A model generated the notes under the pieces. The model saw only the letters and a program-made list of their open reading frames with translations, was not told where the DNA came from and ran no database searches. A DNA stretch of 48,268 nt, from the NCBI GenBank assembly GCA_023659975.1, contig JAGXOI010000001.1, positions 1-48,268 of the forward strand, read 5' to 3'. The stretch comes from Candidatus Aenigmarchaeota archaeon LH_S4. Its GTDB lineage: Archaea > Aenigmatarchaeota > Aenigmatarchaeia > QMZS01. Positions 4,551-46,882 of this stretch are shown here, in pieces. A program made the position numbers and the translations under genes. How positions within the stretch are numbered: the first letter of the stretch is position 1; every line of letters begins with the position of its first letter.

Positions 4551-5630
4551 TTACTTAAATTTTCCTCTGAGTTTTTTCATAACGGCGGGCATTGTTGTAT
4601 ATTCCATCTCATCGTCGGGTAATCTGTGTGGCTGGAAAGGTCCATGCCTTCTCATGTAATCTGCAGTTTCACCAGATTTTTGTCTTGCCAAATCAAAAGC
4701 AGGGTCATCAAATAGGTCCTGATGTCCAATTATTTTTCTGTTTGTAACCTGAAAACCAACACCTATTACTCTTGGGGGTCCATCAAATCTTGTGCATCTT
4801 GCATTTCCTTGTGAAACTGGAGTAAAAGGTCCATTATGTGAGCCCCTCATCCATCCAGAAACTAAGAAGGGAAAAGCAAAAGGTTCAAGAACTTCTCCAA
4901 CTGCTGGAAAACCACTCTGTGCTCTGCAAACCATCACAGGGTCATCTTTACCAACATATCTTCCTGCCATCTGTGAAAGTTTTTGTGTTGAAGTTACCGA
5001 AGCAATATCTTTTTTCTTTGAGTACACCGCCTTTATTATATATCTACTTGGAGAGCCAATTAAAGCGAGTAAGTCATATATTTCTTCTGGTGAAGTTAAG
5101 TTAACTGTTTTTCCTGTTCTTGCATCTAAAACTTCGAAGATAAATCCATCATGCATGTGTGGATCTATTACCAAACCTGCTGTATTAAAAGGGTCTGCAA
5201 AAATTTTATACAAAGGCAAATTCCACGCTCCAGATTCTGTCTTATCAGCCATAAAAACCAAGACAGGATCACTCTTTCTCTCTTCAAATTCCATTTCAGC
5301 AACTCCAGGACCCATTCCTTTAACATTACCGGAAAAAGCACTTTTCAGTAAATCCTGACCTGCCCCATAATATTTCTCTTTTTTTGAAATTTTATCTGTC
5401 AAACCCTCAAAAACATTCCAGGCCAATTTATGAATCTCTTTATTGTTAACCCCTTTACCATGAGTCATTATCAATTCTAAATCATCTCCACAATGAGTCA
5501 CATAGGAGTCATTGATTACCCTTGACTTCTTTAGAATCTTTTTTGCATTGTCAATTAACTTCTGGTTACAGGTTGAATGTCCAGGACAACCACCGATATC
5601 CGCTTTTATTACAGAAACACTTGTTTTCAT
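4551..5630 (-). CDS. fbp: Fructose-1,6-bisphosphate aldolase/phosphatase (class V FBPase)
   Basis: The N-terminus MKTSVSVIKADIGGCPGHS and the ~360 aa length are typical of archaeal FBP aldolase/phosphatase. Confidence 0.9.
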   Translation of the reverse strand: MKTSVSVIKADIGGCPGHSTCNQKLIDNAKKILKKSRVINDSYVTHCGDDLELIMTHGKGVNNKEIHKLAWNVFEGLTDKISKKEKYYGAGQDLLKSAFSGNVKGMGPGVAEMEFEERKSDPVLVFMADKTESGAWNLPLYKIFADPFNTAGLVIDPHMHDGFIFEVLDARTGKTVNLTSPEEIYDLLALIGSPSRYIIKAVYSKKKDIASVTSTQKLSQMAGRYVGKDDPVMVCRAQSGFPAVGEVLEPFAFPFLVSGWMRGSHNGPFTPVSQGNARCTRFDGPPRVIGVGFQVTNRKIIGHQDLFDDPAFDLARQKSGETADYMRRHGPFQPHRLPDDEMEYTTMPAVMKKLRGKFK

Positions 5631-5909: not shown

Positions 5910-7052
5910 CTAAAATCGGGAGATTCTGAGATCGCACTCTGAACCACAAAAGCTTGCTGACTTCTTTATATCCTCTGCCTCAGTTACGGGCTGTGCCAAA
6001 ACAGCCCCTGATTTAGACATATAGCCTAAACCTCGTTTGCAGATATTTATACTTCCATTTCTATCTGCATTTTCTTCTTTTCTACATTCAGGACACCAAA
6101 ATAATCCTTGAGTTTTTCTTATTCCTTCATTTCCACACTTCCAACACAGTTGAGAAGTATAAGATTCATTTACTTTTACTACTGAAATCCCTTCCCAGTT
6201 TGCTTTGTATTCTATAAATTGTGATAGCTGATAGCTTGGCATAGAGTTCAACTTTCTGTTAAACTTCTTTCCTTTATAGTTTTTGTTATTCTTCTTTCTT
6301 ATTCCATTCTTTCTAATTCCTTTCAAATCACCAATTACTATTGCTGAATTTGTGTTTTTAGCCCAACCCACAACTCTCTTTGCTATTTTGTGCATTTGGT
6401 CTTTTGTTATTCTTTTTTCTTTGCTGTTCTTTATCTTTTTGTAGAAACCCCTGATTTTCTTCCCTGCTAACTTCCCTCTCAAGTGGAAGTAGTGTCCTCT
6501 TGTTTCTCTGATATCCTTCCCATAGAACTTGGTTTTCTTGTTGGAATACTGCACCACGGACGCAATATTTTTTACTCCAAGATCTATAGATAAGGTATCA
6601 GTATAATGAGTCTTTAATTTCTGCTCTTTCTGAACAGTTATGTTTAAGAACCAGTCTTTTTTAGTTTTGATTAATTTTGATTCAGATAATTCATAATCTA
6701 ATAAGTTTTGTTGTTTGTTTGAAAAATTAACCGCAACCCAGATTGATTTGTTATAAACAGGAACTCTTACCCAATATTTAGATAGTTTATTATTTGTTTT
6801 TTTGACCTTAATTAAGTCTTTTCTGATTATCAAAGGTTGCTCTTTTTTAGGATTTGTTCTCTTTGCTAATCTCTCTGCCTGTTGTTTCGTCGCAGAATAG
6901 AGTTTTATATCTTTGTATAATGGAAGAAAATCTAATCCTTTAGAATCTAATTGCAAGAAATCCTGAAAATTAGAATATTCTTTCTCAAGTTTTTCTCTCT
7001 TAATATTAGTTGGTCTAATAATCTTAGTTTGAATTGTTTTTTGTAGTTTCAT
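5910..7052 (-). CDS. tnpB: TnpB (OrfB) RNA-guided nuclease-like transposon protein
   Basis: 380 aa from MKLQKTIQTK. Shows SIDLGVKN (RuvC-I), YTSQLCWKCG...CPEC zinc ribbon and NADRNGSINI (RuvC-III). Paralog at 34229-35365. Confidence 0.85.
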   Translation of the reverse strand: MKLQKTIQTKIIRPTNIKREKLEKEYSNFQDFLQLDSKGLDFLPLYKDIKLYSATKQQAERLAKRTNPKKEQPLIIRKDLIKVKKTNNKLSKYWVRVPVYNKSIWVAVNFSNKQQNLLDYELSESKLIKTKKDWFLNITVQKEQKLKTHYTDTLSIDLGVKNIASVVQYSNKKTKFYGKDIRETRGHYFHLRGKLAGKKIRGFYKKIKNSKEKRITKDQMHKIAKRVVGWAKNTNSAIVIGDLKGIRKNGIRKKNNKNYKGKKFNRKLNSMPSYQLSQFIEYKANWEGISVVKVNESYTSQLCWKCGNEGIRKTQGLFWCPECRKEENADRNGSINICKRGLGYMSKSGAVLAQPVTEAEDIKKSASFCGSECDLRISRF

Positions 7053-7143
7053 AATAATCATATCTTTTACATCTTGGACAACACACAGGTTTTTTAACTC
7101 TTGGTTTCCATTCATAACCACATCTTTTACACTTAATCTTCAT
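7024..7143 (-). CDS. 39-aa zinc-ribbon mini-protein overlapping the tnpB start
   Basis: Manual translation gives MKIKCKRCGYEWKPRVKKPVCCPRCKRYDYYETTKNNSN, with CxxC...CPxC. It lies between the IS left end and tnpB. It is too short for the ORF track. Confidence 0.4.
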   Translation of the reverse strand: MKIKCKRCGYEWKPRVKKPVCCPRCKRYDYYETTKNNSN

Positions 7144-26336: not shown

Positions 26337-26532
26337 ATTTGGTGTTTTTGTGGTGATAAATACCACATAGCTAAACCTTTTTCCAATGTTCTTCTCTAAA
26401 TTCCTATTTTTTTCCCAAATTACTTGCTGTTGATTTTCCAATCGTAAGAAGTTTTATATAAACTTTGGTTTCATTATCTGTTAAACCAATTTTTTGGGTT
26501 AATTTAGATTCTAATAGATATGCTGATTTGAG

Positions 26533-26607
26533 GTGTCGCAAGTGAAACTGCTAATTTTATCACTTTCGCAGTCTCGCCTTGCGAGTCAACCTTTTTTAAA
26601 GGCTGAC
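26533..26607 (-). ncRNA. Structured hairpin RNA module, copy A (23S 3' trailer)
   Basis: Minus strand reads GTCAGCCTTTAAAAAAGGTTGAC then TCGCAAGGCGAGACTGC-GAAAGTGATAAAATTA-GCAGTTTCACTTGCGA. It is homologous to 30466-30523 and 44601-44669. Confidence 0.5.
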
Positions 26608-26631
26608 AAGGAATAGAGTATCTATTTGTTG

Positions 26632-29705
<3,074 letters not shown>

Positions 29706-29902
29706 GCAACAAATAGATAATACTCTCCTTACACCTATTTTAATCATTGAGTACGAATAGATACTCTTTAGAAGATTTCTTAATATCAATAAGAAACCTT
29801 TCAACATAATATGATATAAAAGTTATATATAAGAAACCTTCACTAAAAACTTAGTTAATAATATCTAATATTGATAGATATTTACAGAATTAAACTAAAA
29901 TT

Positions 29903-30349
29903 ATGCAAGAGGTAATAGATAAAATCTGGAAAGAAACAACTCATTTTGGGAGCCTATGGTTTTATTCTTTTCTTGTTGCTTTGATGTTTATTCTTGGAGA
30001 AAAAATTTTATCTTTTCAATTGTTGGTAGGATTTGTTTTATCCTATCTAATTATAGTGTGTATAAGAGTAGTATATTATAAAGAAAGACCCAATAAACAA
30101 ACCTACAAAAGGTTTATTGAAAAAATATATGTCTCTTCATTTCCAAGTTTACATTCTATTAGAGGTGCAATGCTCTTTATATTTTTCTCACTCTATTACA
30201 ATACTTTATTAGTTTCCTTACTATTTCTTATTTTATCTCTTACAATTTTCGCGAGCAGATATTTCCTGAAAAAACATTATGTTTCAGATATTGTAGCAGG
30301 AGCAATAATTGGATTTCTATTATCTTATGGAATTATTTTGATTATTTAA
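29903..30349 (+). CDS. PAP2-family membrane phosphatase (polyprenyl-diphosphate phosphatase-like)
   Basis: Motifs KERP, PSLHS and SRYFLKKHYVSD, matching KxxxxxxRP / PSGH / SRxxxxxHxxxD. Four to five TM helices. Confidence 0.75.
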   Translation: MQEVIDKIWKETTHFGSLWFYSFLVALMFILGEKILSFQLLVGFVLSYLIIVCIRVVYYKERPNKQTYKRFIEKIYVSSFPSLHSIRGAMLFIFFSLYYNTLLVSLLFLILSLTIFASRYFLKKHYVSDIVAGAIIGFLLSYGIILII

Positions 30350-30412: not shown

Positions 30413-30753
30413 TGGACCTGGAGGGATTTCCAGAACCTTTTGATAACCAATATCCCTGTTTGGAGTGTCGCAAGGTGAAACAGCCAATTTTATCACTTTC
30501 GGTTTCGCAGTCTCACCTTGCAATTTGGCCCTTGCTAACCCATTTCATATTTGGGGTGCAGACCTTTTCATTTACTGCACCGAAAAGGGTTGCTTTTTAA
30601 AGGCTGACTTTGAACCCTCGGCCTCCGCCTGTTTTGGCTTGAGTTTTTAAAAGTCACACTTGCAAAGGCGGCATTCTACCAATTGCTCAAAACTACAATT
30701 TGAAAGCCTACCAAACTATTTTTTGTGTTGTAGTTTTACTGAACTACAGGCCC
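30413..30753 (-). tRNA. tRNA-Ala(UGC) with three introns: D-loop 30684-30738, anticodon 30630-30659, T-loop 30427-30608
   Basis: GGGCCTG TA GTTC AG[55 nt]ATTGGTA GAAT G CCGCC TTTGCAA [30 nt] GGCGG AGGCC GAGGG TTCAAA[182 nt]T CCCTC CAGGTCC A. The G3:U70 alanine identity pair is present. The gene is 341 nt for a 74-nt tRNA. Confidence 0.8.
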
Positions 30754-31320
30754 ATAAACTAATAATTATCTTAATTATAATTTCTCAATAACAAATAACT
30801 ATATGAAACAATAGATTCAACTTTAGGAATTCCAGTAGAATAGAAGTTTAAGCTACCTTAATTTTTTATTTATTAAGGTGATCCAGCCGCACGTTCCCGT
30901 ACGGCTACCTTGTTACAACTTAGCCCTCCTTACAAAATCCAAGGTTGATTCTCCAAAAATTGAAGAAGCTCCCTTAAGACTCTATTCAGATGGCTTGATG
31001 GGCAGTGTGTGCAAGGAGCAGGGATAAATTCATCGAACGATAATGACGTTCGATTACTAGGGATTCCGTCGTCACAGGGGCAAGTTTCAGCCCCCGATCT
31101 GAACTAGGGTTGAGTTTAGGGATTAGCTTTCTCTTTCGAGATTGCAACTCTCTGTCTCAACCATTGTTGCGCGCGTGTAGCCCAAGAAGTTCGGGCCGTA
31201 CCGACCTGCCGTCGCCCACTCCTTCCTCCTGTTTACACAGGCAGTTCTTTTAGAGTACTCTGCTAAAGCAGATCGCAACTAAAAATGTGGATCTCGCTCG
31301 TTGCCAGACTTAACTGGACA

Positions 31321-31359
31321 TTTTTGTTGAGGTTATTAGGTTTTTACTTCCTAAAAAAC
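31321..31359 (-). other. ~39-nt AT-rich hairpin insertion in 16S (helix 35-37 region)
   Basis: GTGTTGT-ATGG[GTTTTTTAGGAAGTAAAAACCTAATAACCTCAACAAAAA]TGTCCAGTTAAGTCTGGCAACGAGCGAGA. Bacterial and archaeal consensus has only ~4 nt here. Confidence 0.5.
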
Positions 31360-31503
31360 CCATACAACACGAGCTGACGACGGCCATGCAACTCCTCTCA
31401 GCTAGTCTGGTAAGCTCTTTAGACTGACCTTCATCCAGCTGTCTTCCTTGGTAAGATTCTCGGTGTTGAGTCCAATTAAACCGCACACTGCACCCCTTAT
31501 GTA

Positions 31504-31546
<43 letters not shown>

Positions 31547-31647
31547 CCCCAGGTGGCCCGCTTAATGGTTTCCCTTCGAAACTGGCTAGTTCCTACAAAC
31601 CAGCCAACATCAAGCGGGCATCGTTTACAGCTAGGACTACCCGGGTA

Positions 31648-31706
31648 CTTAGGAACCTCTCTTTAATTAATATTTTTTAAATATTCATCTTTAGAAAAAG
31701 GTTCAA
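31648..31706 (-). other. 59-nt intron in the 16S 790 loop
   Basis: The universally conserved GGATTAGATACCCGGGTAGTCC is split as GGATTAGA[59 nt]TACCCGGGTAGTCC. The insert is AT-rich with terminal complementarity GAACCT...AGGTTC. Confidence 0.8.
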
Positions 31707-32648
31707 TCTAATCCGGATTGCTCCCCTAGCTTTCATCCCTCACCGTCAGAGTTATTCTAGTTAGATGCCTTCGCCATCGGTGGTCCCCTTAGGATCAAAG
31801 GATTTCACCCCTACCCCAAGAGTACCTCTAACCTCTCCTAATCTCTAGTCTAACAGTATTTCTAGCATTTTCTTGGTTAACAAGAAATTTAACCAGAAAC
31901 TTGCTAGACCGGCTACGGATGCTTTAAACCCAATAAAAGTGGTCACTACTTGTGGCTCGGGTATTACCGCGGCGGCTGCCACCCGTATTACCCACCACTT
32001 ATTCGATAAGCTTTTTTAACTTAACAAAAGTTATTCCTTTGTGGAATAACACTTAGAGTCCCCCTATCGCACTTAAGTGCATGGTAAAGGTTTCGCGCCT
32101 GCTGCACTCCGTAGGGCCTGGATTCTTGTCTCAGAATCCATCTCCGGGCTATTGCTCTCACAACCCGTACTAATTATCGGCTTGTCGGGCTTTTACCCCA
32201 ACAACAACCTAATCAGATATAATCCTATCCTTAGTTCAGATAGATTCTTTCCAGAACTCCTATCCTATCTTCTTTTATCCTCAGTTTCCCGAGATTATAG
32301 AAGTTCTAAGGGTAAGTTAATTATACTTTACTGAGCCGTTCGCACTTCAAAACCGAAGTTCCAAAGTACTTGCATGGCTTAGTCGAACTCTAATAGCAGT
32401 GACCTCCGGCAGGATCAACCGGAATTATAGCAGGGATTTGCTCCTTACTTATATACTCCTTCTATTCTACTTTGAAAGACTAAACTTATTTAATTTCAAA
32501 GTTTAATAATCTATTTCATTAGATTACTTCATTGCCTTTAAAGACTCTTCATAATAGTAAATATATAAAATTTAAATATAACCTAATTAGTTGTAAAAAT
32601 GTAATTTATAAGTATTTTATCCTTTTATATATTAAATAAAATTAAATT

Positions 32649-34228: not shown

Positions 34229-35365
34229 TTAAAATCGGGAGATTCTGAGATCGCACTCTGAACCACAAAAGCTTGCTGACTTCTTTATGTCCTCTGCCTC
34301 AGTTACGGGCTGTGCCAAAACAGCCCCTAGTTTAGACATATAGCCTAAACCTCGTTTGCAGATATTTATACTCCCATTTCTATCTGCATTTTCTTCTTCT
34401 TTACATTCAGGACACCAGAATAAACCTTGAGTTTTTCTAACTCCTTCATTTCCACACTTCCAACACAGTTGAGAAGTATAAGCTTCATTTACTTTGATTA
34501 CTGAAATTCCCTCCCAGTTCGCTTTGTATTCTATAAATTGAGATAGTTGATAGTTTGGCATAGAGTTCAACTTTCTGTTAAACTTCTTTCCTTTATAGTT
34601 TTTGTTATTCTTCTTTCTTGCTCCATTCTTTCTAATTCCTTTCAAATCACCAATTACTATTGCCGAATTTGTGTTTTTAGCCCAATCTATAATATCCTTT
34701 GCTGTCTTATGTACTTGATCTTTGGTTATTCTTTTTTCTTTATTGTTCTTTATTTTTTTGTAGAAACCTCTGATTTTCTTCCTTGCTAACTTCCCTCTCA
34801 AGTGGAAGTAGTGTCCTCTTGTTTCTCTGATATCCTTCCCATAGAACTTGGTTTTCTTGTTGGAATACTGCACCACGGACGCAATATTTTTTACTCCAAG
34901 ATCTATAGATAAGGTATCAGTATAATTTGTTTTTAATTCCTGTTCTTTTTGAACAGTTATATTTAAGAACCAGTCTTTTTTACCTTTGATTAACTTTGAT
35001 TCAGATGATTCATAATTCAATAAATCTTGTTGTTTGTTAGAAAAATTGATTGCAACCCAAATTGATTTATTATAAACAGGAACTCTTACCCAATATTTAG
35101 ATAGCTTGTTATCTGTTTTCTTAACTTTAATACAATCCTTCCTGATTATCAAAGGTTGTTCTTTTTTAGGTTTTGTTCTTTTTGCTAATCTTTCTACCTG
35201 TTGTTTTGTTGCTGAATAGAGTTTTATATCTTTGTATAATGGAAGAAAATCTACATCCTGCATTTTTAGGATACCCTGAAAATTAGAATATTCTCTCTCA
35301 AGTTTTTCTCTCTTAATATTGGTTGGTCTAATAATCTTGGTTTGAATTGTTTTTTGTAGTTTCAT
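34229..35365 (-). CDS. tnpB: TnpB (OrfB), copy 2
   Basis: 378 aa from MKLQKTIQTK. Near-identical to 5910-7052, with the same RuvC and zinc-ribbon motifs. Confidence 0.85.
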   Translation of the reverse strand: MKLQKTIQTKIIRPTNIKREKLEREYSNFQGILKMQDVDFLPLYKDIKLYSATKQQVERLAKRTKPKKEQPLIIRKDCIKVKKTDNKLSKYWVRVPVYNKSIWVAINFSNKQQDLLNYESSESKLIKGKKDWFLNITVQKEQELKTNYTDTLSIDLGVKNIASVVQYSNKKTKFYGKDIRETRGHYFHLRGKLARKKIRGFYKKIKNNKEKRITKDQVHKTAKDIIDWAKNTNSAIVIGDLKGIRKNGARKKNNKNYKGKKFNRKLNSMPNYQLSQFIEYKANWEGISVIKVNEAYTSQLCWKCGNEGVRKTQGLFWCPECKEEENADRNGSINICKRGLGYMSKLGAVLAQPVTEAEDIKKSASFCGSECDLRISRF

Positions 35366-35477
35366 AATTCTCAAGTAGTTTTCTGACAATATCCTCAAAT
35401 GTCTCTCCTTTCTTTCCCAATTTCTTTAACATATTATAGGTTGATTTCTTTAATTGTATAGTTGTTATAGTCACCAT
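35328..35477 (-). CDS. 49-aa antitoxin-like mini-protein overlapping the tnpB start
   Basis: Manual translation gives MVTITTIQLKKSTYNMLKKLGKKGETFEDIVRKLLENYETTKNNSNQDY. The pattern I.L...T...L..L...GE(S/T)F.D.I..LL resembles small archaeal putative antitoxins. Confidence 0.4.
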   Translation of the reverse strand: MVTITTIQLKKSTYNMLKKLGKKGETFEDIVRKLLENYETTKNNSNQDY

Positions 35478-35756: not shown

Positions 35757-38700
35757 TTACTTCACTCCTTTGATATATCCTTTAAACCAATTTAGCCACC
35801 TGTTGTAAATTTCCTTTGAATCCAAAGCACCTGATTCTTTTCTAACTTCTTCAGAGAAAGTATGAAACATAGAATTTGAGAGGATAACATTACTTGCTTC
35901 CATGATACTAGGTTTCTTTGTTTCAACTGCAGTTTTTACAATTGTATCAAGAATATCTGCTCTTAGCTTGATATTACTCCAGACAGCATCCCAATCTCCT
36001 CTCCATTCTTTAACATTTTTTGCAATAGAATTTATTATTTCACTCTCACCAGCTAAAAGAGTTGGGGTTGGCTCTAGCTCATCTTTTTTAGCATTATATT
36101 CAAGCAAATTAACAAAACCTTTTTCTTCTGCAGGATCTTTTTTCCAGTGTTTCCTAATTTCTGTAAATTCAACTGTTCTTCTAAAAGAATGTAGTCCATC
36201 AGCACTTTTTAAGGTATTGTTTATAAGTATCAGGTCTGTTGCTTTGAAACTTGTAGGGGGGACCCCCAAATCATTTACAACTCTATCAAATAAACCATAA
36301 GCACTTTCTCCATGTATAGTTCCTGCAACAACATTAGCCATTGCACCAATCCTCATTGCCTCATAAAGAGCCAAAGCTTCCTTGCTTCTTACTTCACCAA
36401 TTATCAGACAAGAATCTCCTAACCTTAAGGATACTCTCAAAACTTCTTCGGCAGGCAGTTCAGTTTCAACCATTGTAATCACTGATCTTGATTTTAATCT
36501 TGTTATATTATATCCAATTTCCCTAAATTTTTTTAAGGGTAATTCAAGAGTATTATGAGCCAAGATATTTTCACACACAAAATTCTCATTCTCAGGAACA
36601 GAAAAATCATAAACATATATCTCTGATTTTACTTTTTTTACACTAACAACTCTATCCCAAAAAATATCTGAATATGCTAATTGTTTTAGAAAAGTATATA
36701 GTTTATTTTTATCTGGTATTTTAGGGATTAATTTTTTCAAATATTCTCTTCCAATATTATTTCTCCTCTTTATATAATCATTTTTATTAAAATCTTTACA
36801 TACCCGGGCCATTTCTTTTTTTAGTTCTATAGACAAGGGTATTATATCTGCAGAGTCATTTGTAGATATTTTGGAGCAGAGCTTCTTAAGTTTTTTTCTT
36901 TTCTTTTCTATAAGTATTCCAATTTTCTCCCTAAAATTTTTCTGGGATTTTAAGCTGGAAATATCTGCATTAAATGTTCCGTCTTTTCTTCGGTTATTGC
37001 TTTTCCTGAGAATTATATCGTAATCCAGAAGTAAGGTTTGCAAGTCATATAATAGTTTTTCTGAAGTTAGAGGGATTACAATTTCTTTTTCACTCACACA
37101 CCCGTCTCCGGAGAATATTCCCCTCAAAACAAAAGATATCTGCTCTTTAGATAAATTATATATCCATTCAGGGACTTCTTTGGTATAAGCATTACCCTTT
37201 AAATTTAATACATCCTGCATAACTATTTTGAGTATATCCGAAGAGATTATTGAGGTAAAAGTATCAGAATGCATCTTAACCCTAAGATCAAGCTTTTTTG
37301 CCACGCTTCTTACAACTCTTCTTAATTCTTCTTCAACCACTGAAATTAGAACACTCCGCTTATCATAGCACCCATCTGCTATCCATAGTCCAATAAAGGT
37401 TAAAAAATCTTCATTCAGGGATATTTTTGTTGGTATGGGTTGGCCCCCACTCCTGGGTTTAATTTTGATATTTTTGAAATCAAAACTTTTTTTGTTTAAT
37501 TTTACAAAAACTTTCACAGGCAAAATACCTTTTCTTTTCCAATAGGAGCATAGTTTTTCAGAGTAACCCAACTTCCTCGAGACTTTCTTTATTTCTGTCC
37601 CCTGCTCTTTTATTAACCCCTGGATTTCTTTTCCCTTCAGATAGAAATTTTTTAATTTTTCTAAGTGTTCCAACAGATTTACTGAGTCTTTCCTTCTGTT
37701 GTTTACCCTAAATATTCTTGGAACTACAATAAAATTACCTTCTTCTAAGTCTCTAACCCTAATTTCTTCCAAAATTCTTTTGTTACCTATAGAAAAAAGG
37801 GAGTGGTCACCAGTTACTTTTATCTTCCGACCAGTTGATGTTAAAATTTCATAAATGTCTTTATTTGTCTTGTGTCTGATAAAAGAACTCACTTTTTTAA
37901 ATTCTATTTTACCTTCTTTATTAATTGAGCAAATTTCTATTTCATCTTTTATATCTGTTGCTCTGACAATATTTCTTTCATTCTCTATTCCTGGTTTATA
38001 GTTCTTAATTAGCTCATCTATCAAATTACCAATCTTTGTCTTCTCAATTTTCCTGTTTCTTTTAATCAGGATTATAGAATCTCCTGTGACACTATCCTCA
38101 ACCGAAATAATCCTTTTATTTTTCATTATTTGTGAGATTAGAGCACCTAATAAACTTGTTTTTCCTGAACTTCTTGTTCCACCAACCAACATAGATCTTC
38201 CACCATCTATTATAAACCAAAGCAGTCCACCAGCAAGAGGATTTAGCATTTTTTGGGAGATAAAGAGAGGGAAGGTCCAAGGTTTTTCCCTGTGCCTTCT
38301 CAAAGCAAAACCAAGACCTTCCGGGGATAAAGTCTGCATTATTGCACAAACTCTCGCCCTCCCACCAGGAACAGAAATTTCAGTATCCAAAACAGGGTTT
38401 GCTTCATCCAAAGGTCTTCCCGAACTTAACCTCAATCTTGTTGCTAACAATTCTGCATCCTCTTTTGTTTGAGTTATGTTTGTCTGACATTCACCATATT
38501 TCCCATGATAAAGGTAAGTTGGTGCAGAGCTTGGGGGTGAGTTGACATAGACATCCTGAACATTATCATCAGACAAAAGTAATTCCAGAATCCCGATTCC
38601 AGCAGTATATCTAACAAGAATATTTGAAATAATTTTTAGTTTTTCTTCTGGGATATTAGATGAACCTGAAAGATCTCTTAACATATCAAGACCAATATTA

Positions 38701-39539
38701 TAAAAACTTTTTCTCACTTCTTTTGAAGCAAATTCTTCTCTTTCCAGGGGTCTATGCCTTGCCATATATCTCTTTGCCTTGTCAAGTAGCTCATATTCTT
38801 TTTCTTCTAAACCAAATTCTAGCGGAATAATATGATACAAAGTTCTTATTTCATTTGGTATTTTATAAATCTCAACTTTTGCATCCTGGATTTGATAATT
38901 GTCAATTAGTTCTGCTTTTTCTGGGGGGGTTGCCTGATATTTTGTGTAAGTGAAATTTGGTCTGACAGAGGGAATAAAAAACTGCCTGTAAACTGACCGG
39001 TCTCCAACTTTATATCCGGGCAAAAATCCAAGACTTTTCTTTATTAATGTTGTTTCCTCTAATAACTCTTTTAGGGGAATTAGTGAATTGTTAAGATAAT
39101 GTTCATAACATTCCTTGCAGATTCCTTTTGTCCTCTCACCCAAAACCTTTGTGTGTCTTATTCTTCTTACTAGTAGAACGTACGCACCTACAGGGTCAGT
39201 CTTTAATTTTCCCAGAATTGTATTTTGCAAAAAATCCATTCTTTTAGAAACACACCGGTCACACTTTTCTATAACCAGATTTTTTTTGGAAAACAATTTT
39301 AGATCCCTTGTTATCTTTTCATAAAGTTTGGCAATTTCAAGCAGCATCTGTGTCTGCTCAAAGTTGTATTCATACTCTCTCTCTTTTGATAAAACAATTG
39401 ATTTGGCATCTTTAACAGCAATTAAATAGTTTATAATCTCCGACATACATTCAGGAAAATCCTCTACTGAAGAGCCGTATATACAGTTTAAGCAATCTAC
39501 TTTTAAAACACCATCTTTATAAGTGTATTTTCCAGGCAT
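35757..39539 (-). CDS. Type IV pilus/archaellum-type (GspE/VirB11/FlaI family) secretion ATPase containing an intein
   Basis: Walker A GGTRSSGKTS. The Asp-box RIISVED | TLEL is split by the intein. The C-terminal part has GEVRSKEA and the His-box region. Confidence 0.8.
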   Translation of the reverse strand: MPGKYTYKDGVLKVDCLNCIYGSSVEDFPECMSEIINYLIAVKDAKSIVLSKEREYEYNFEQTQMLLEIAKLYEKITRDLKLFSKKNLVIEKCDRCVSKRMDFLQNTILGKLKTDPVGAYVLLVRRIRHTKVLGERTKGICKECYEHYLNNSLIPLKELLEETTLIKKSLGFLPGYKVGDRSVYRQFFIPSVRPNFTYTKYQATPPEKAELIDNYQIQDAKVEIYKIPNEIRTLYHIIPLEFGLEEKEYELLDKAKRYMARHRPLEREEFASKEVRKSFYNIGLDMLRDLSGSSNIPEEKLKIISNILVRYTAGIGILELLLSDDNVQDVYVNSPPSSAPTYLYHGKYGECQTNITQTKEDAELLATRLRLSSGRPLDEANPVLDTEISVPGGRARVCAIMQTLSPEGLGFALRRHREKPWTFPLFISQKMLNPLAGGLLWFIIDGGRSMLVGGTRSSGKTSLLGALISQIMKNKRIISVEDSVTGDSIILIKRNRKIEKTKIGNLIDELIKNYKPGIENERNIVRATDIKDEIEICSINKEGKIEFKKVSSFIRHKTNKDIYEILTSTGRKIKVTGDHSLFSIGNKRILEEIRVRDLEEGNFIVVPRIFRVNNRRKDSVNLLEHLEKLKNFYLKGKEIQGLIKEQGTEIKKVSRKLGYSEKLCSYWKRKGILPVKVFVKLNKKSFDFKNIKIKPRSGGQPIPTKISLNEDFLTFIGLWIADGCYDKRSVLISVVEEELRRVVRSVAKKLDLRVKMHSDTFTSIISSDILKIVMQDVLNLKGNAYTKEVPEWIYNLSKEQISFVLRGIFSGDGCVSEKEIVIPLTSEKLLYDLQTLLLDYDIILRKSNNRRKDGTFNADISSLKSQKNFREKIGILIEKKRKKLKKLCSKISTNDSADIIPLSIELKKEMARVCKDFNKNDYIKRRNNIGREYLKKLIPKIPDKNKLYTFLKQLAYSDIFWDRVVSVKKVKSEIYVYDFSVPENENFVCENILAHNTLELPLKKFREIGYNITRLKSRSVITMVETELPAEEVLRVSLRLGDSCLIIGEVRSKEALALYEAMRIGAMANVVAGTIHGESAYGLFDRVVNDLGVPPTSFKATDLILINNTLKSADGLHSFRRTVEFTEIRKHWKKDPAEEKGFVNLLEYNAKKDELEPTPTLLAGESEIINSIAKNVKEWRGDWDAVWSNIKLRADILDTIVKTAVETKKPSIMEASNVILSNSMFHTFSEEVRKESGALDSKEIYNRWLNWFKGYIKGVK
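36552..38093 (-). other. 514-aa intein with LAGLIDADG homing endonuclease domain
   Basis: It starts SVTGDSIIL (Ser1), has block B VTGDHS, LAGLIDADG motifs FIGLWIADGCY and LRGIFSGDGCV, and ends ...ENILAHN followed by +1 Thr. Removal restores ISVED-TLEL. Confidence 0.85.
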
Positions 39540-39576: not shown

Positions 39577-40692
<1,116 letters not shown>

Positions 40693-44856: not shown

Positions 44857-45375
44857 ATGAACATAACTCTAATTGGCATGGCTGGAGTTGGAAAAAGTAC
44901 CCTGGGAAAAAAGTTGGCAAGAAAATTGAATTATAAATTTATAGATACAGATAAGGTAATTGAAAAAAAGGTTAATTTAAAACCTCAACAAATAATAGAC
45001 AATTTCGGTGATAATGAACTTTTAAAAATAGAGGAAAAATGTGTTTTAGAGTTAGGTAAACTTGATAATTATATAATTTCTTCTGGAGGGAGTGTAATCT
45101 ATTCTTCGGAAGCTATGAAATTTATTAAAAATAATTCTACTGTTATTTTTTTGAATGATTCATTTAAAAACATACAAAGCCGGCTTACAAATCAAAAAAC
45201 AAGAGGAATTATTGGCCTAAAAAATAATAATTTAATCCAGCTTTTTAATAATAGAGTAGTTCTCTACAAAAAATATGCAGATATAATTATTGATATTACA
45301 AACAAATTTGATGTTAAAGAGGTAATTGAGAAGATTATTAAAGGAGCTAAAAATAATAGTTATGCACTGGGCTGA
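44857..45375 (+). CDS. aroK: Shikimate kinase, AroK/AroL (P-loop) type
   Basis: MNITLIGMAGVGKSTLGKKLARKLNYKFIDTD and SSGGSVI are typical of bacterial-type shikimate kinase. Confidence 0.6.
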   Translation: MNITLIGMAGVGKSTLGKKLARKLNYKFIDTDKVIEKKVNLKPQQIIDNFGDNELLKIEEKCVLELGKLDNYIISSGGSVIYSSEAMKFIKNNSTVIFLNDSFKNIQSRLTNQKTRGIIGLKNNNLIQLFNNRVVLYKKYADIIIDITNKFDVKEVIEKIIKGAKNNSYALG

Positions 45376-46882
45376 TATTTTTTCGAAACAGGTTGTTGAA
45401 AAAAGACCTAAGGAAGAGTATGTTGTCGAAAGTGGGATCACTCCTTCAGGTGTTGTTCATATTGGAAATGTCAGGGAAATTTTAACACAGTATTTTGTTT
45501 ATCAGGGAATTTTAAAGTTGGGAAAGAAAGCTAAGTTTATTTATATCTGGGATGATTTTGACAGGTTCAGAAAAGTTCCTAAGGGGATTTCAGAGAAGTT
45601 TAAGGATTATATTGGAATGCCCCTGTCTTCGCTTCCTGACCCATGGAACTGTCACAAAAGTTATGCAGAACATTTTGAGTCAAAACTGGAAGAAGAAATA
45701 AAAAAGATAGGAATTGAAGTGGAATATATTTCAGCAACAGAGTTATATAAAAACGGAACTTTTGTTGAAAACATAAAAACCTCTCTTGAAAAAACAGAAA
45801 AAATCAAGGAAATTTTAAATAAATTCAGAAAAGAGCCTTTGCCTAAAGATTGGTTGCCTATAAATTTGTATTGTGAAAAATGTGGTAAGGATAGTACAAA
45901 AATAAAATATTTAGGTGATTATAAGTTATCTTACAAATGTAAATGCGGATTTGAGAATGAAATTGATTTTAGAAAAACAACAGATGCAGTTAATCTTAAA
46001 TGGAGGGTTGACTGGCCTTCCAGGTGGAAGTTTTTTGGAGTTGATTTTGAGAGTTCAGGAAAGGAGCATAAATCCGCTGGTGGGAGTTGGGATACTGCAA
46101 TTTTAATATCAAAAGAAGTTTTTGGTTATGAGCCTCCTCTAGGACCGATGTATGAATTTATTCATTTAAAGGGACAAAAAGAAAAAATGTCTTCATCAAA
46201 AGGAAATATTGTAACAATCTCACAATTATTAAAAATTTTTAAGCCATCGATTATTAGATTTCTATATACACAGAGACTGAATAAAACTATTTTCATTCCC
46301 TTTGATTTTGATATATATAAGGTATACAATGATTTTGATAGATGTGAGAAAATTTATTTTGGTAAGGAAGAGGGAGATGAAGAACTTAAAAGGAAATATG
46401 AGTTAAGTAAACTAGAAGATTATAAAACCTGTCCGAAAAGAATTTCTTTTTCTGAACTAACTTTTCTTGTGCAGTTTATATCCAAAGAAAAACTTAGAGA
46501 ATATTTAAAAAACTTGCTATTATCCAGAGGAGTTAAAGTAGATAAATTGGATTTAGACTTGGCCTTAGAGAGAGCGGATAGGGTAAAATACTGGATAGAA
46601 AATTATGCACCTGAAGAAATAAAAATAAAATTAAGCACAGAGAAAATTTATTTGACAGAGGAACAAAAAGAAATTATAAACAAACTCTCAGAAATTGTAA
46701 AAAAAGAAAGTTCAACAGAAGAATTGCAAAAACAGATTTTTGAATTAGCAAAAAATTATGGAAAAGGAGTTTTTGAAATTTCTTATCGGGTTTTAATTGG
46801 AAAAAATCATGGACCAAGATTAGCAATCTTAATTGATGCAATTGGAAGAGATAAAGTTTTGGAGAGATTTAGAAATTTATAA
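45362..46882 (+). CDS. lysK: Lysyl-tRNA synthetase, class I
   Basis: GITPSGVVHIGNVRE (HIGH-like) and KMSSSKG (KMSKS), with the Zn-binding CEKCGK...CKCG. The start is set at MHWADIF (45362). Confidence 0.85.
   Translation: MHWADIFSKQVVEKRPKEEYVVESGITPSGVVHIGNVREILTQYFVYQGILKLGKKAKFIYIWDDFDRFRKVPKGISEKFKDYIGMPLSSLPDPWNCHKSYAEHFESKLEEEIKKIGIEVEYISATELYKNGTFVENIKTSLEKTEKIKEILNKFRKEPLPKDWLPINLYCEKCGKDSTKIKYLGDYKLSYKCKCGFENEIDFRKTTDAVNLKWRVDWPSRWKFFGVDFESSGKEHKSAGGSWDTAILISKEVFGYEPPLGPMYEFIHLKGQKEKMSSSKGNIVTISQLLKIFKPSIIRFLYTQRLNKTIFIPFDFDIYKVYNDFDRCEKIYFGKEEGDEELKRKYELSKLEDYKTCPKRISFSELTFLVQFISKEKLREYLKNLLLSRGVKVDKLDLDLALERADRVKYWIENYAPEEIKIKLSTEKIYLTEEQKEIINKLSEIVKKESSTEELQKQIFELAKNYGKGVFEISYRVLIGKNHGPRLAILIDAIGRDKVLERFRNL

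Follow-up and report, generated by a model that had tools for sequence, protein, structure and literature searches.

What does it mean that the trailer of a 23S rRNA gene and an intron in the T-loop of a tRNA gene open with the same sequence? This question is raised by the rRNA locus of Candidatus Aenigmarchaeota archaeon LH_S4, analysed here in a window of 48,268 nt, the whole stretch under study, from contig JAGXOI010000001.1 (GCA_023659975.1; G+C 32.7%). A sequence-only reading had taken the trailer for an internally deleted version of the T-loop intron of tRNA-Ala, and the shared element for a mobile or duplicating unit associated with bulge-helix-bulge (BHB) sites, where the splicing endonuclease cuts. 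The present analysis indicates that the trailer and intron sequences are probably copies of a lineage-specific, non-autonomous 51-nt repeat that has multiplied in this lineage of Aenigmatarchaeota (DPANN archaea). The earlier idea is partly supported: a mobile or duplicating unit is borne out, a specific tie to BHB sites is not.

Similarity between the 23S trailer and the tRNA-Ala intron

The 15-mer GTCAGCCTTTAAAAA occurs without mismatch only twice in the window, at 26607..26593 in the trailer and at 30608..30594 in the intron, while its remaining four window matches carry three mismatches each. In the trailer it adjoins the 3' strand of the 23S processing stem (26633..26608), and in the intron it begins at intron base 1, directly after GGGTTCAAA. 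Both sequences also contain a hairpin module of about 50 nt, at 26582..26538 (copy A) and 30521..30470 (copy B), in which 46 of the 49 aligned bases are identical; a 6-nt tandem duplication (CCGAAA) and a 1-nt indel distinguish copy A from copy B. Downstream of the module lies ACACCTCAAAT in the trailer and ACACTCCAAAC in the intron. The shared start and the sequences that come after the module are as originally read, and the pairwise alignment proposed with that reading bears out the likeness: the local alignment scores 73, against a mean of 15.4 in 1000 shuffles (sd 2.5, maximum 31; z ~23), and the chained alignment 93.8, against 21.2±4.2. Within-window BLAST returns three collinear blocks (E = 1.7e-6, 0.007 and 0.007).

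The claim that both termini are conserved fared less well. ACACYYCAAA, which had been taken for the 3' terminus, is an internal motif, and the intron continues for a further 40 nt to its true 3' terminus, ...TTGGTTATCAAAAGGTTCTGGAAA, for which the trailer has no counterpart. With just the 5' terminus in common, the trailer is better described as the same 51-nt core with the same nested hairpin than as a shortened intron. Because the module sits at the same internal point of the core in both (between GGYYRAC and ACACYY), the two window copies are each other's closest relatives. No further module copy was found in the window, and the module pattern has no match in the species genomes (one genome per species) or in viral contigs.

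A 51-nt repeat family in Aenigmatarchaeota

The core, GTCAGCCTTTARAAAAGGCCRACACYCCAAACARGG…TTGGTYAATAAA, has the consensus GTCAGCCTTTA(A/G)AAAAGGCC(G/A)ACAC(C/T)CCAAACA(G/A)GG-nnn-TTGGT(C/T)AATAAA. In the genomes of 185,579 species, one for each, the pattern TCMWWGTCAGCCTTTARAAAR gave 13 matches, four in metagenome-assembled genomes (MAGs) of Aenigmatarchaeota and the others bacterial chance matches, and added a tRNA-Arg locus (L016). With the two-halves pattern CAGCCTTTARAAA-N1-5-CCRACACYCCAAAC, eight loci were retrieved, all eight of them in Aenigmatarchaeota MAGs. A pattern for the 3' half added a further locus (L027) alongside bacterial chance matches, and a regular expression run over the fetched loci revealed a truncated second copy in L015, at 6409. 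The total is at least 12 copies in five genomes. Viral contigs contain no match to the core, and a single scan of a metagenome collection returned three copies of one tRNA-Asn orthologue and nothing else. A hidden Markov model (HMM) of the core, run with nhmmer on the window, recovered intron positions 30470-30439 as core 20-51 (E=6e-7) and trailer positions 26607-26584 as core 1-24 (E=3.5e-4).

The copies start at the same G and end raggedly, after 51, 43, ~38 or 30 nt. Four single-cell-like runs (X1, X2, X3 and X21) contain the rRNA locus of the window at ~99% identity together with repeat copies known from Candidatus Aenigmarchaeota archaeon LH_S6; the organism of the window is a member of the repeat-bearing lineage.

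Two alternative pairings can be drawn within the core. The 5' hairpin (GTCAGCC/GGCCGAC) reaches 81% pairing, carries an invariant A.C mismatch and shows no covariation. The alternative helix P2 (GGCCRA:TTGGTY) is 98% paired and all its substitutions are pairing-compatible, yet its covariation score is reached by 144 of 500 shuffles and is not significant.

A second short motif, AAAAGGTCYGCACCCYAAA, lies beside or nested in the core in three genomes (window 30535-30569; L015 1475-1511; L004, after the core), a recurrence that suggests tandem core half-copies and repeated rearrangement.

Locations of the copies and comparison of filled and empty sites

The sequence-only reading had detached the element from any particular host gene, and this view is upheld by copies in six tRNA genes, the 23S trailer, three sites just past stop codons and two open reading frames (ORFs). 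In T-loop introns at position 59/60, the core begins at the predicted splice site in tRNA-Ala (window), tRNA-Val (L004), tRNA-Tyr (L007), tRNA-Arg (L016) and tRNA-Asn (L019 and L021-23), the host genes being identified by ARAGORN after in-silico splicing. In tRNA-Lys (L020) the core lies 20 nt inside a D-loop intron; this gene has a further intron at 53/54. In X2 and X3 a paralogous T-loop intron is present in another tRNA (3' exon ...CCCCTCTCGTCCA), without 62-63 nt that include the module.

Outside tRNA genes, the core lies 1-10 nt 3' of the stop codon of a ferredoxin-like ORF (L015), a TFB ORF (L018) and a Zn-ribbon ORF (L027). The TFB-side copy is truncated in LH_S6, and in X2 and X21 it is followed by a tandem second core.

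Filled and empty sites are provided by the genes of two housekeeping enzymes. Dephospho-CoA kinase of L017 carries a unique 17-aa in-frame insertion (KSAFKKGRHPKQGNWSI), equal to 51 nt and the entire core, which is absent from 11 homologues (58-70% identity). In LH_S6 and a 94%-identical relative, G1P dehydrogenase carries the 10-aa insertion QPLEKADTPK, equal to 30 nt or core ~1-30, which is absent from 10 homologues (70-80% identity). The two copies are read in different frames. As both keep the frame of their hosts (51 and 30 nt), they look translated rather than spliced. At the 3' junction of the filled L017 site there is a 5-nt ATAAA repeat, but AATAAA belongs to the element in all copies.

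The proposed link with BHB sites is accordingly divided. In its favour, core base 1 coincides with the predicted 5' splice site in five T-loop introns. Against it, the 23S core starts 6 nt past the predicted cut, the tRNA-Lys core lies 20 nt inside its intron, the ORF copies are in frame, and a BHB scan of the non-tRNA copies gave nothing above background. At the ORF and post-stop copies the scan scores were 4-6, like those of random positions, with a home-made scanner that is poorly specific in AT-rich DNA.

The repeat as the body of the tRNA-Ala T-loop intron

The tRNA-Ala gene and the parts of its T-loop intron are arranged as follows.

30413..30753, minus strand: tRNA-Ala(UGC) gene with three introns (assigned manually; spliced product checked by ARAGORN)
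30753-30739, 30682-30661, 30630-30609 and 30426-30413, minus strand: exons of tRNA-Ala
30738-30683 (15/16), 30660-30631 (37/38, canonical) and 30608-30427 (59/60), minus strand: introns of tRNA-Ala
30427..30608, minus strand: T-loop (59/60) intron, 182 nt
30594..30608, minus strand: intron core 1-15, GTCAGCCTTTAAAAA (exact match; nhmmer E=0.14)
30531..30593, minus strand: hairpin X, nested in the A-rich core loop (folds; nhmmer E=0.048 for 30569-30535)
30470..30521, minus strand: module copy B, a 15-bp hairpin at the same core point as copy A
30439..30469, minus strand: intron core 20-51, GACACTCCAAACAGGGATATTGGTTATCAAAA, including the P2 3' strand TTGGTT at 30450-30445 (nhmmer E=6.3e-7)

ARAGORN reports no tRNA in the genomic window, and the exons spliced in silico yield a 73-nt tRNA-Ala(tgc) with the G3:U70 identity pair. 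From its 5' end the T-loop intron consists of core 1-15, hairpin X (63 nt), the P2 5' strand GGCCAA, ATT, module B, G, core 20-51 and the tail AAAGGTT-C-TGGA-AA. Hairpin X itself holds a second, partial core-like motif, AAAAGGTCTGCACCCCAAAT, which is also found after the core in L015 and L004. An extra degenerate core had been considered 3' of the tRNA gene, at 30405-30391 (14 of 15 nt), and was rejected as unsupported by the HMM.

The predicted BHB of the T-loop reads GAGGG-TTCA-[AA/G]TC-AGCCTTT ... AAAGGTT-C-TGGA-[AA/T]-CCCTC (bulges in brackets, predicted cuts as slashes), with the G of GTCAGCC as predicted intron base 1. It has a 4-bp helix and two 3-nt bulges, and the predicted cuts restore a canonical tRNA. 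G30608 is the third base of the 5' bulge, and AGCCTTT pairs with AAAGGTT at 30440-30434; a 2x1 internal loop displaces this inner helix (h') and makes the motif a relaxed one. Across the five host tRNAs, the T-stem and central helix are 97.8% paired, and the central helix is 100% paired in five of five. A compensatory change from A-U to G-C is found between TTCA:TGGA and TTCG:CGGA, and the covariation score was reached by none of 500 shuffles.

In a fold within 1.2 kcal/mol of the minimum free energy, the T-stem, AGCCUUU:AAAGGUU and P2 enclose the module, and both nested insertions lie in loops. At 30483/30482 in module B, the sister genomes show a double change, CT>TA, by which a U.U mismatch becomes U-A and a G-C pair becomes G.U; the fold energy shifts from -24.0 to -26.6 kcal/mol.

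Processing of the precursor would then proceed as follows. The repeat would form the body of the intron, with its first G as the third base of the 5' bulge; AGCCUUU would pair with AAAGGUU near the intron 3' end and the tail UGGA with T-loop bases 54-57; and the resulting 4-bp helix with its two 3-nt bulges would be cut by the endonuclease, after which the exons would be ligated.

A separate observation concerns the D-loop intron of the same gene (TAAAACTACAAC...TTGTAGTTTTGAGCAA), which is homologous to the D-loop intron of the L016 tRNA-Arg.

The repeat beside the 23S processing stem

The 23S flanks comprise a processing stem and, directly after its 3' strand, the trailer copy.

26608..26633, minus strand: 3' strand of the 23S processing stem (inverted repeat and cofold)
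29705..29730, minus strand: 5' strand of the 23S processing stem, AAGGA-GAGT-[ATT]-ATCTATTTGTTGCT, with its bulge at 29720-29718 (inverted repeat and cofold)
26585..26607, minus strand: trailer core positions 1-23, GTCAGCCTTTAAAAAAGGTTGAC (exact 15-mer; nhmmer E=3.5e-4; fold)
26538..26582, minus strand: module copy A, hairpin GCAAGGCGAGACTGC-GAAAGTGATAAAATTA-GCAGTTTCACTTGC, between GGTTGAC and ACACCT of the core
26522..26536, minus strand: trailer core positions ~24-38, ACACCTCAAATCAGC, a degenerate 3' part (alignment)

The 3' strand reads AGCAACAAATAGAT-ACTC-[TAT]-TCCTT, with an inner helix at 26633-26621, the central helix, the bulge TAT at 26615-26613 and an outer helix at 26612-26608. Cofolding of the two flanks gives a BHB with an inner helix of 13-14 bp, the bulges ATT and TAT, a central helix of 4-5 bp and a 5-bp outer helix. 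A BHB consists of a 4-bp helix between 3-nt bulges, and in pre-tRNA the anticodon bases 34 and 35 lie within the central helix (PMC4090602), which places the cut after the second bulge base and thus the predicted 23S 3' cut at TA/T. GTCAGCC starts 6 nt 3' of this cut (ACTC-TA/T-TCCTT-GTCAGCC), directly past the outer helix. Folding to place the BHBs relative to GTCAGCC therefore gave two answers, coincidence in tRNA-Ala and a distance of 6 nt in 23S. At the trailer core junction itself, the best BHB scan score is 3, under the typical background of 5-7. By these predictions, the boundaries of the trailer copy do not match a BHB cut, and the sole BHB there is that of rRNA processing. Its cuts would yield the pre-23S circle junction ...ACUCUA>UAUCUAUU and the leader-trailer ligation junction ...GAGUAU>UUCCUUGUCAGCC.

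The trailer copy is made up of core 1-23, TC, module A, G and core ~24-38, and its TTGGTYAATAAA end is missing. A CC>TT change perfects a 10-bp hairpin within core 1-23, which in the fold is closed and abuts the outer helix of the processing stem. When leader and trailer are cofolded, two local repeat hairpins form and the leader then re-pairs with 26521-26507. This extra pairing amounts to -10.2 kcal/mol, with p ~0.06 against shuffles, and the 3' boundary of the copy, 26522, is drawn from it and is equally marginal. An 86-nt element (26607-26522) inserted as a branch into a longer stem is suggested by the predicted fold. In the pre-23S RNA, the repeat would thus branch from the processing stem, on its 3' side, as two local hairpins 6 nt past the BHB cut, and would be lost with the trailer.

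Apart from the repeat, the 23S 3' processing strand has a second, bulge-free complement of 15 nt (29753-29767 against 26615-26629, 93% complementary), ~35 nt upstream of the BHB-forming leader strand; this alternative pairing would mask the BHB.

Origin and spread of the repeat

The reading as a multiplied repeat, which is favoured here, rests on distribution and polymorphism, and several observations weigh against it. Neither a transposase nor terminal inverted repeats nor any consistent target-site duplication came to light, and the word mobile here describes distribution and polymorphism rather than a mechanism. The identity between trailer and intron is uneven, at 100% in the first 15 nt, 94% in the module and ~60% in the part 3' of the module; this is not predicted by a single clean duplication, and the module may be selected or separately inserted. 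The core is ~90% or more conserved between MAGs of different studies, and all copies with an unambiguous host transcript (four informative ones) are in sense orientation, both of which would also fit a functional RNA motif. For the 23S trailer there is no empty-site comparison, and the leader-trailer pairing that brackets the copy reaches only p ~0.06.

Under this reading, the repeat would survive only where it is harmless: in tRNA introns removed by the endonuclease, in the discarded 23S trailer, just past stop codons, and in frame within ORFs, where the copies would lie in surface loops of the proteins. As to the window pair, one copy would, most simply, have been copied from, or converted by, the other within the ~4 kb rRNA locus. 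The best guess at the copying process is a microhomology-primed, DNA- or RNA-templated synthesis running to a fixed GTCAGCC end, which would account for copies with a uniform start and variable 3' ends. In one model, template-primed copying halts at the foot of the 5' hairpin; in the other, the copies derive from RNAs released by the endonuclease. Both models are compatible with a start that never varies, 3' ends that do, microhomology at one junction and a 5' end that coincides with splice sites.

An unlikely alternative is that the core, and perhaps the module, is a functional RNA motif, namely a protein-binding site or a processing or stability signal in introns, rRNA trailers and mRNA 3' ends. 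High conservation across MAGs, sense orientation in all informative copies and the three copies 1-10 nt past stop codons are in keeping with such a role, as are the 98% pairing of P2 with its pairing-compatible substitutions, the placement of nested insertions in loops, the uneven divergence of the two window copies, the pairing-restoring double change in the module, and the lack of any trailer substitution in the module across four single-cell genomes. A functional motif sits poorly, however, with the in-frame copies in two enzymes, with copies cut down to 30 and 43 nt, and with a trailer copy that has no P2 3' strand and has lost more of its core motif in sister genomes (26530 G>A, plus strand). 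The covariation of P2 is not significant (144 of 500 shuffles), and there is no Rfam match, no C/D or H/ACA box, no K-turn and no convincing antisense target of the module loop in the window.

Rather improbable as well is the proposal that the dispersed repeats were copied into DNA from two RNAs, the excised T-loop intron and the cut 23S trailer, each with a 5' end generated by the splicing endonuclease. The source RNAs would have the 5' ends GUCAGCC (intron) and U-UCCUU-GUCAGCC (trailer), with priming by internal microhomology and run-off at the RNA 5' end. Every copy indeed starts at the same G, the predicted intron base 1 in five tRNAs, the 3' ends are ragged (51, 43 and 30 nt), and a 5-nt ATAAA microhomology is found at the 3' junction of the filled L017 site. 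Moreover, the ferredoxin-side copy (L015, X1 and X21) has TCCTT before GTCAGCC, like the 23S trailer, so that the similarity begins 1 nt from the predicted 23S BHB cut, a hint in favour of RNA copies. TCCTT is only 5 nt long, however, and no RNA would be needed for this pattern if a 5'-terminal hairpin brought a DNA polymerase to a halt at that base. Furthermore, no reverse transcriptase or other RNA-templated activity was identified, no permuted, circle-derived copies were seen, and the copies informative as to orientation, four in number, are too few to weigh.

A purely local, one-off duplication or gene conversion between intron and trailer, or chance, is very improbable and is refuted as a complete explanation: although the copies lie 4 kb apart in one rRNA locus and share a private module not found elsewhere, chance is excluded (z ~23) and their common 5' part belongs to a family of at least 12 copies in five genomes, which leaves local duplication as part of the best explanation for the module-bearing pair.

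Several known identities were also tried and set aside. Dispersed copies with filled and empty sites, as expected of a miniature inverted-repeat transposable element, are present (at least 12 copies in five genomes; two comparisons), but the ends, 5' GTCAGCCTTT and 3' TTGGTCAATAAA, are not inverted copies of each other as in the classical form. A derivative of IS200/IS605 elements (PATE or the omega-RNA end of TnpB) was rejected, as both TnpB 3' ends of the window (...GTTCAGAGTGCGATCTCAGAATCTCCCGATTTTA...) are unlike core and module. Rfam 15 gave no match at the gathering threshold and only chance matches at E up to 10 (best E=0.09). For a C/D box RNA, there is no RUGAUGA/CUGA box pair, K-turn, K-loop or tandem GA; for an H/ACA guide, an ACA follows the module, yet the stem is continuous, without a pseudouridylation pocket. 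Among possible antisense targets of the module loop in the window, none has fewer than 3 mismatches. An internal promoter with TTTAAAAAA as TATA box was dismissed, as its distance to plausible starts varies between copies, and a viral or plasmid origin as well, viral contigs having no match to core or module.

Comparison with known systems

In Thermoproteales, paralogous BHB-bounded tRNA introns have spread by "intron transposition" (Fujishima et al. 2010), the mechanism of which is described as unknown in the account given in PMC4090602. The present introns are alike in being similar across isoacceptors and positions (Ala, Val, Tyr, Arg and Asn at 59/60; Lys in the D-loop). They differ in that the host lineage belongs to DPANN (Aenigmatarchaeota) and that a discrete 51-nt core is also found in an rRNA trailer, at gene 3' ends and at in-frame ORF sites; the 182-nt intron is longer than the range of 11-129 nt given in PMC4090602.

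A second parallel is offered by the Rickettsia palindromic elements (RPE) and the protein-coding palindromic repeats of M. jannaschii (Ogata 2000/2002 and Suyama 2005, as cited in PMC2229807). The passages of PMC2229807 on these repeats describe them as short, selfish and tolerated, occurring between genes, fused in frame into conserved protein genes, and in stable RNA genes. The in-frame insertions described here (dephospho-CoA kinase, +17 aa; G1P dehydrogenase, +10 aa) and the tRNA and rRNA-flank copies resemble them. Unlike RPE as portrayed in those passages, the present element is 51 nt long rather than ~100-150 nt and lacks both a long palindromic stem-loop and terminal inverted repeats; its copies begin at a fixed base and are truncated on the 3' side, and BHB splicing or trailer removal renders its insertions in RNA genes harmless.

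BHB processing of archaeal pre-rRNA has been linked to intron splicing (Tang et al. 2002, as cited in PMC4090602). In line with that citation, the 23S flanks form a canonical BHB, and the same class of enzyme is expected to cut both them and the tRNA intron; the shared repeat itself lies outside the rRNA BHB, starting after the outer helix. Archaeal tRNA introns can also host small RNAs, as does the intron of tRNA-Trp with its box C/D RNA (PMC4090602). The present tRNA intron is likewise long and encloses a structured RNA, but one without C/D or H/ACA boxes, K-turn, Rfam match or identifiable guide target.

Neighbouring genes and further features of the window

The rRNA locus consists of the following genes.

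29717..26621, minus strand: 23S rRNA (Rfam)
32425..30873, minus strand: 16S rRNA (Rfam)
29903-30349, plus strand: PAP2-family membrane phosphatase gene (Pfam PF01569), between tRNA-Ala and 23S

The PAP2 gene splits the usual 16S-tRNA-Ala-23S operon into two transcription units; because it separates tRNA-Ala from 23S on the opposite strand, 23S is probably transcribed on its own. A synteny search with this gene gave distant matches in Acidobacteria only, and an exact-protein look-up returned one 4-kb contig of the same locus. In X20, the sole metatranscriptome of the study, there are no contigs across the trailer or the tRNA-Ala intron.

Two further segments vary within the 23S gene. An intervening sequence of ~120 nt in domain V (27037-27159, minus strand), between conserved CATA and TCGACGG, consists of two tandem ~48-nt units with the palindrome GAAGCCTTTTAAAAAAAGGCTTC and shows indel differences among the sister genomes X1, X2, X3 and X21. 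Its similarity to the core repeat is weak (nhmmer E=0.2), and a hand-drawn BHB (TACA/TGTA) would leave two extra bases. A 54-nt segment, 28025-28078, is present in the window and skipped in X1, X2 and X21. As an X20 RNA contig spans 27993-28425 ungapped, this segment seems to be retained in the rRNA and seems to be a strain-variable 23S expansion, not an intron.

On the 3' side of the trailer, near 26490-26494, the sequence is longer by 28 bases in the sister genomes X1, X2 and X21. On the minus strand these bases provide an ATG (ATGGAACTAAAAGAATTCCTTGG), which would start a TrmB-like helix-turn-helix ORF (…LTDNETKVYIKLLTIGKSTASNLGKK*); the version in the window (~26490-26405, minus strand) has no start codon and looks truncated.

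Elsewhere in the window, two ORFs encode TnpB (Cas12f1-like TNB domain), at 5910-7121 and 34229-35398, both on the minus strand. Their 3' ends and downstream sequences are near-identical (...GTCAGCAAGCTTTTGTGGTTCAGAGTGCGATCTCAGAATCTCCCGATTTTA...), and both are probably copies of one IS200/IS605-type element with an omega-RNA region. A 1260-aa ORF resembling secretion/FlaI-type ATPases (35757-39539, minus strand) contains an apparent large intein, judged from its translation alone, with an endonuclease-like block followed by ...ENILAHNT. The genes at 39577-40680, 4551-5630 and 45326-46882 include a SepSecS-family ORF (PF05889), a candidate SepCysS, as well as a class V fructose-1,6-bisphosphatase and a class I lysyl-tRNA synthetase, the presence of which indicates an organism less reduced than many DPANN archaea.

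Significance

The route by which BHB introns enter new tRNA genes and positions has been an unsolved question ever since the paralogues of Thermoproteales were described, and the mechanism is still called unknown in PMC4090602. Here, one sharply bounded unit is found in several roles, as intron body, as branch of an rRNA stem, at mRNA 3' ends and as a recent in-frame insertion, and it ties the gain of introns to an ordinary selfish-repeat process. Since these tRNA genes with several introns are invisible to standard tRNA finders, the tRNA sets of DPANN genomes will be under-called. Because filled sites can be set against empty ones, and the copies share a start at the splice site while differing at their 3' ends, the repeat offers a tractable system for distinguishing DNA-level from RNA-level spread. 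If the copies do derive from RNA, BHB introns and rRNA spacers would be retro-copied into new sites, including protein-coding genes, and the way in which archaeal introns spread would for the first time have a concrete mechanism.

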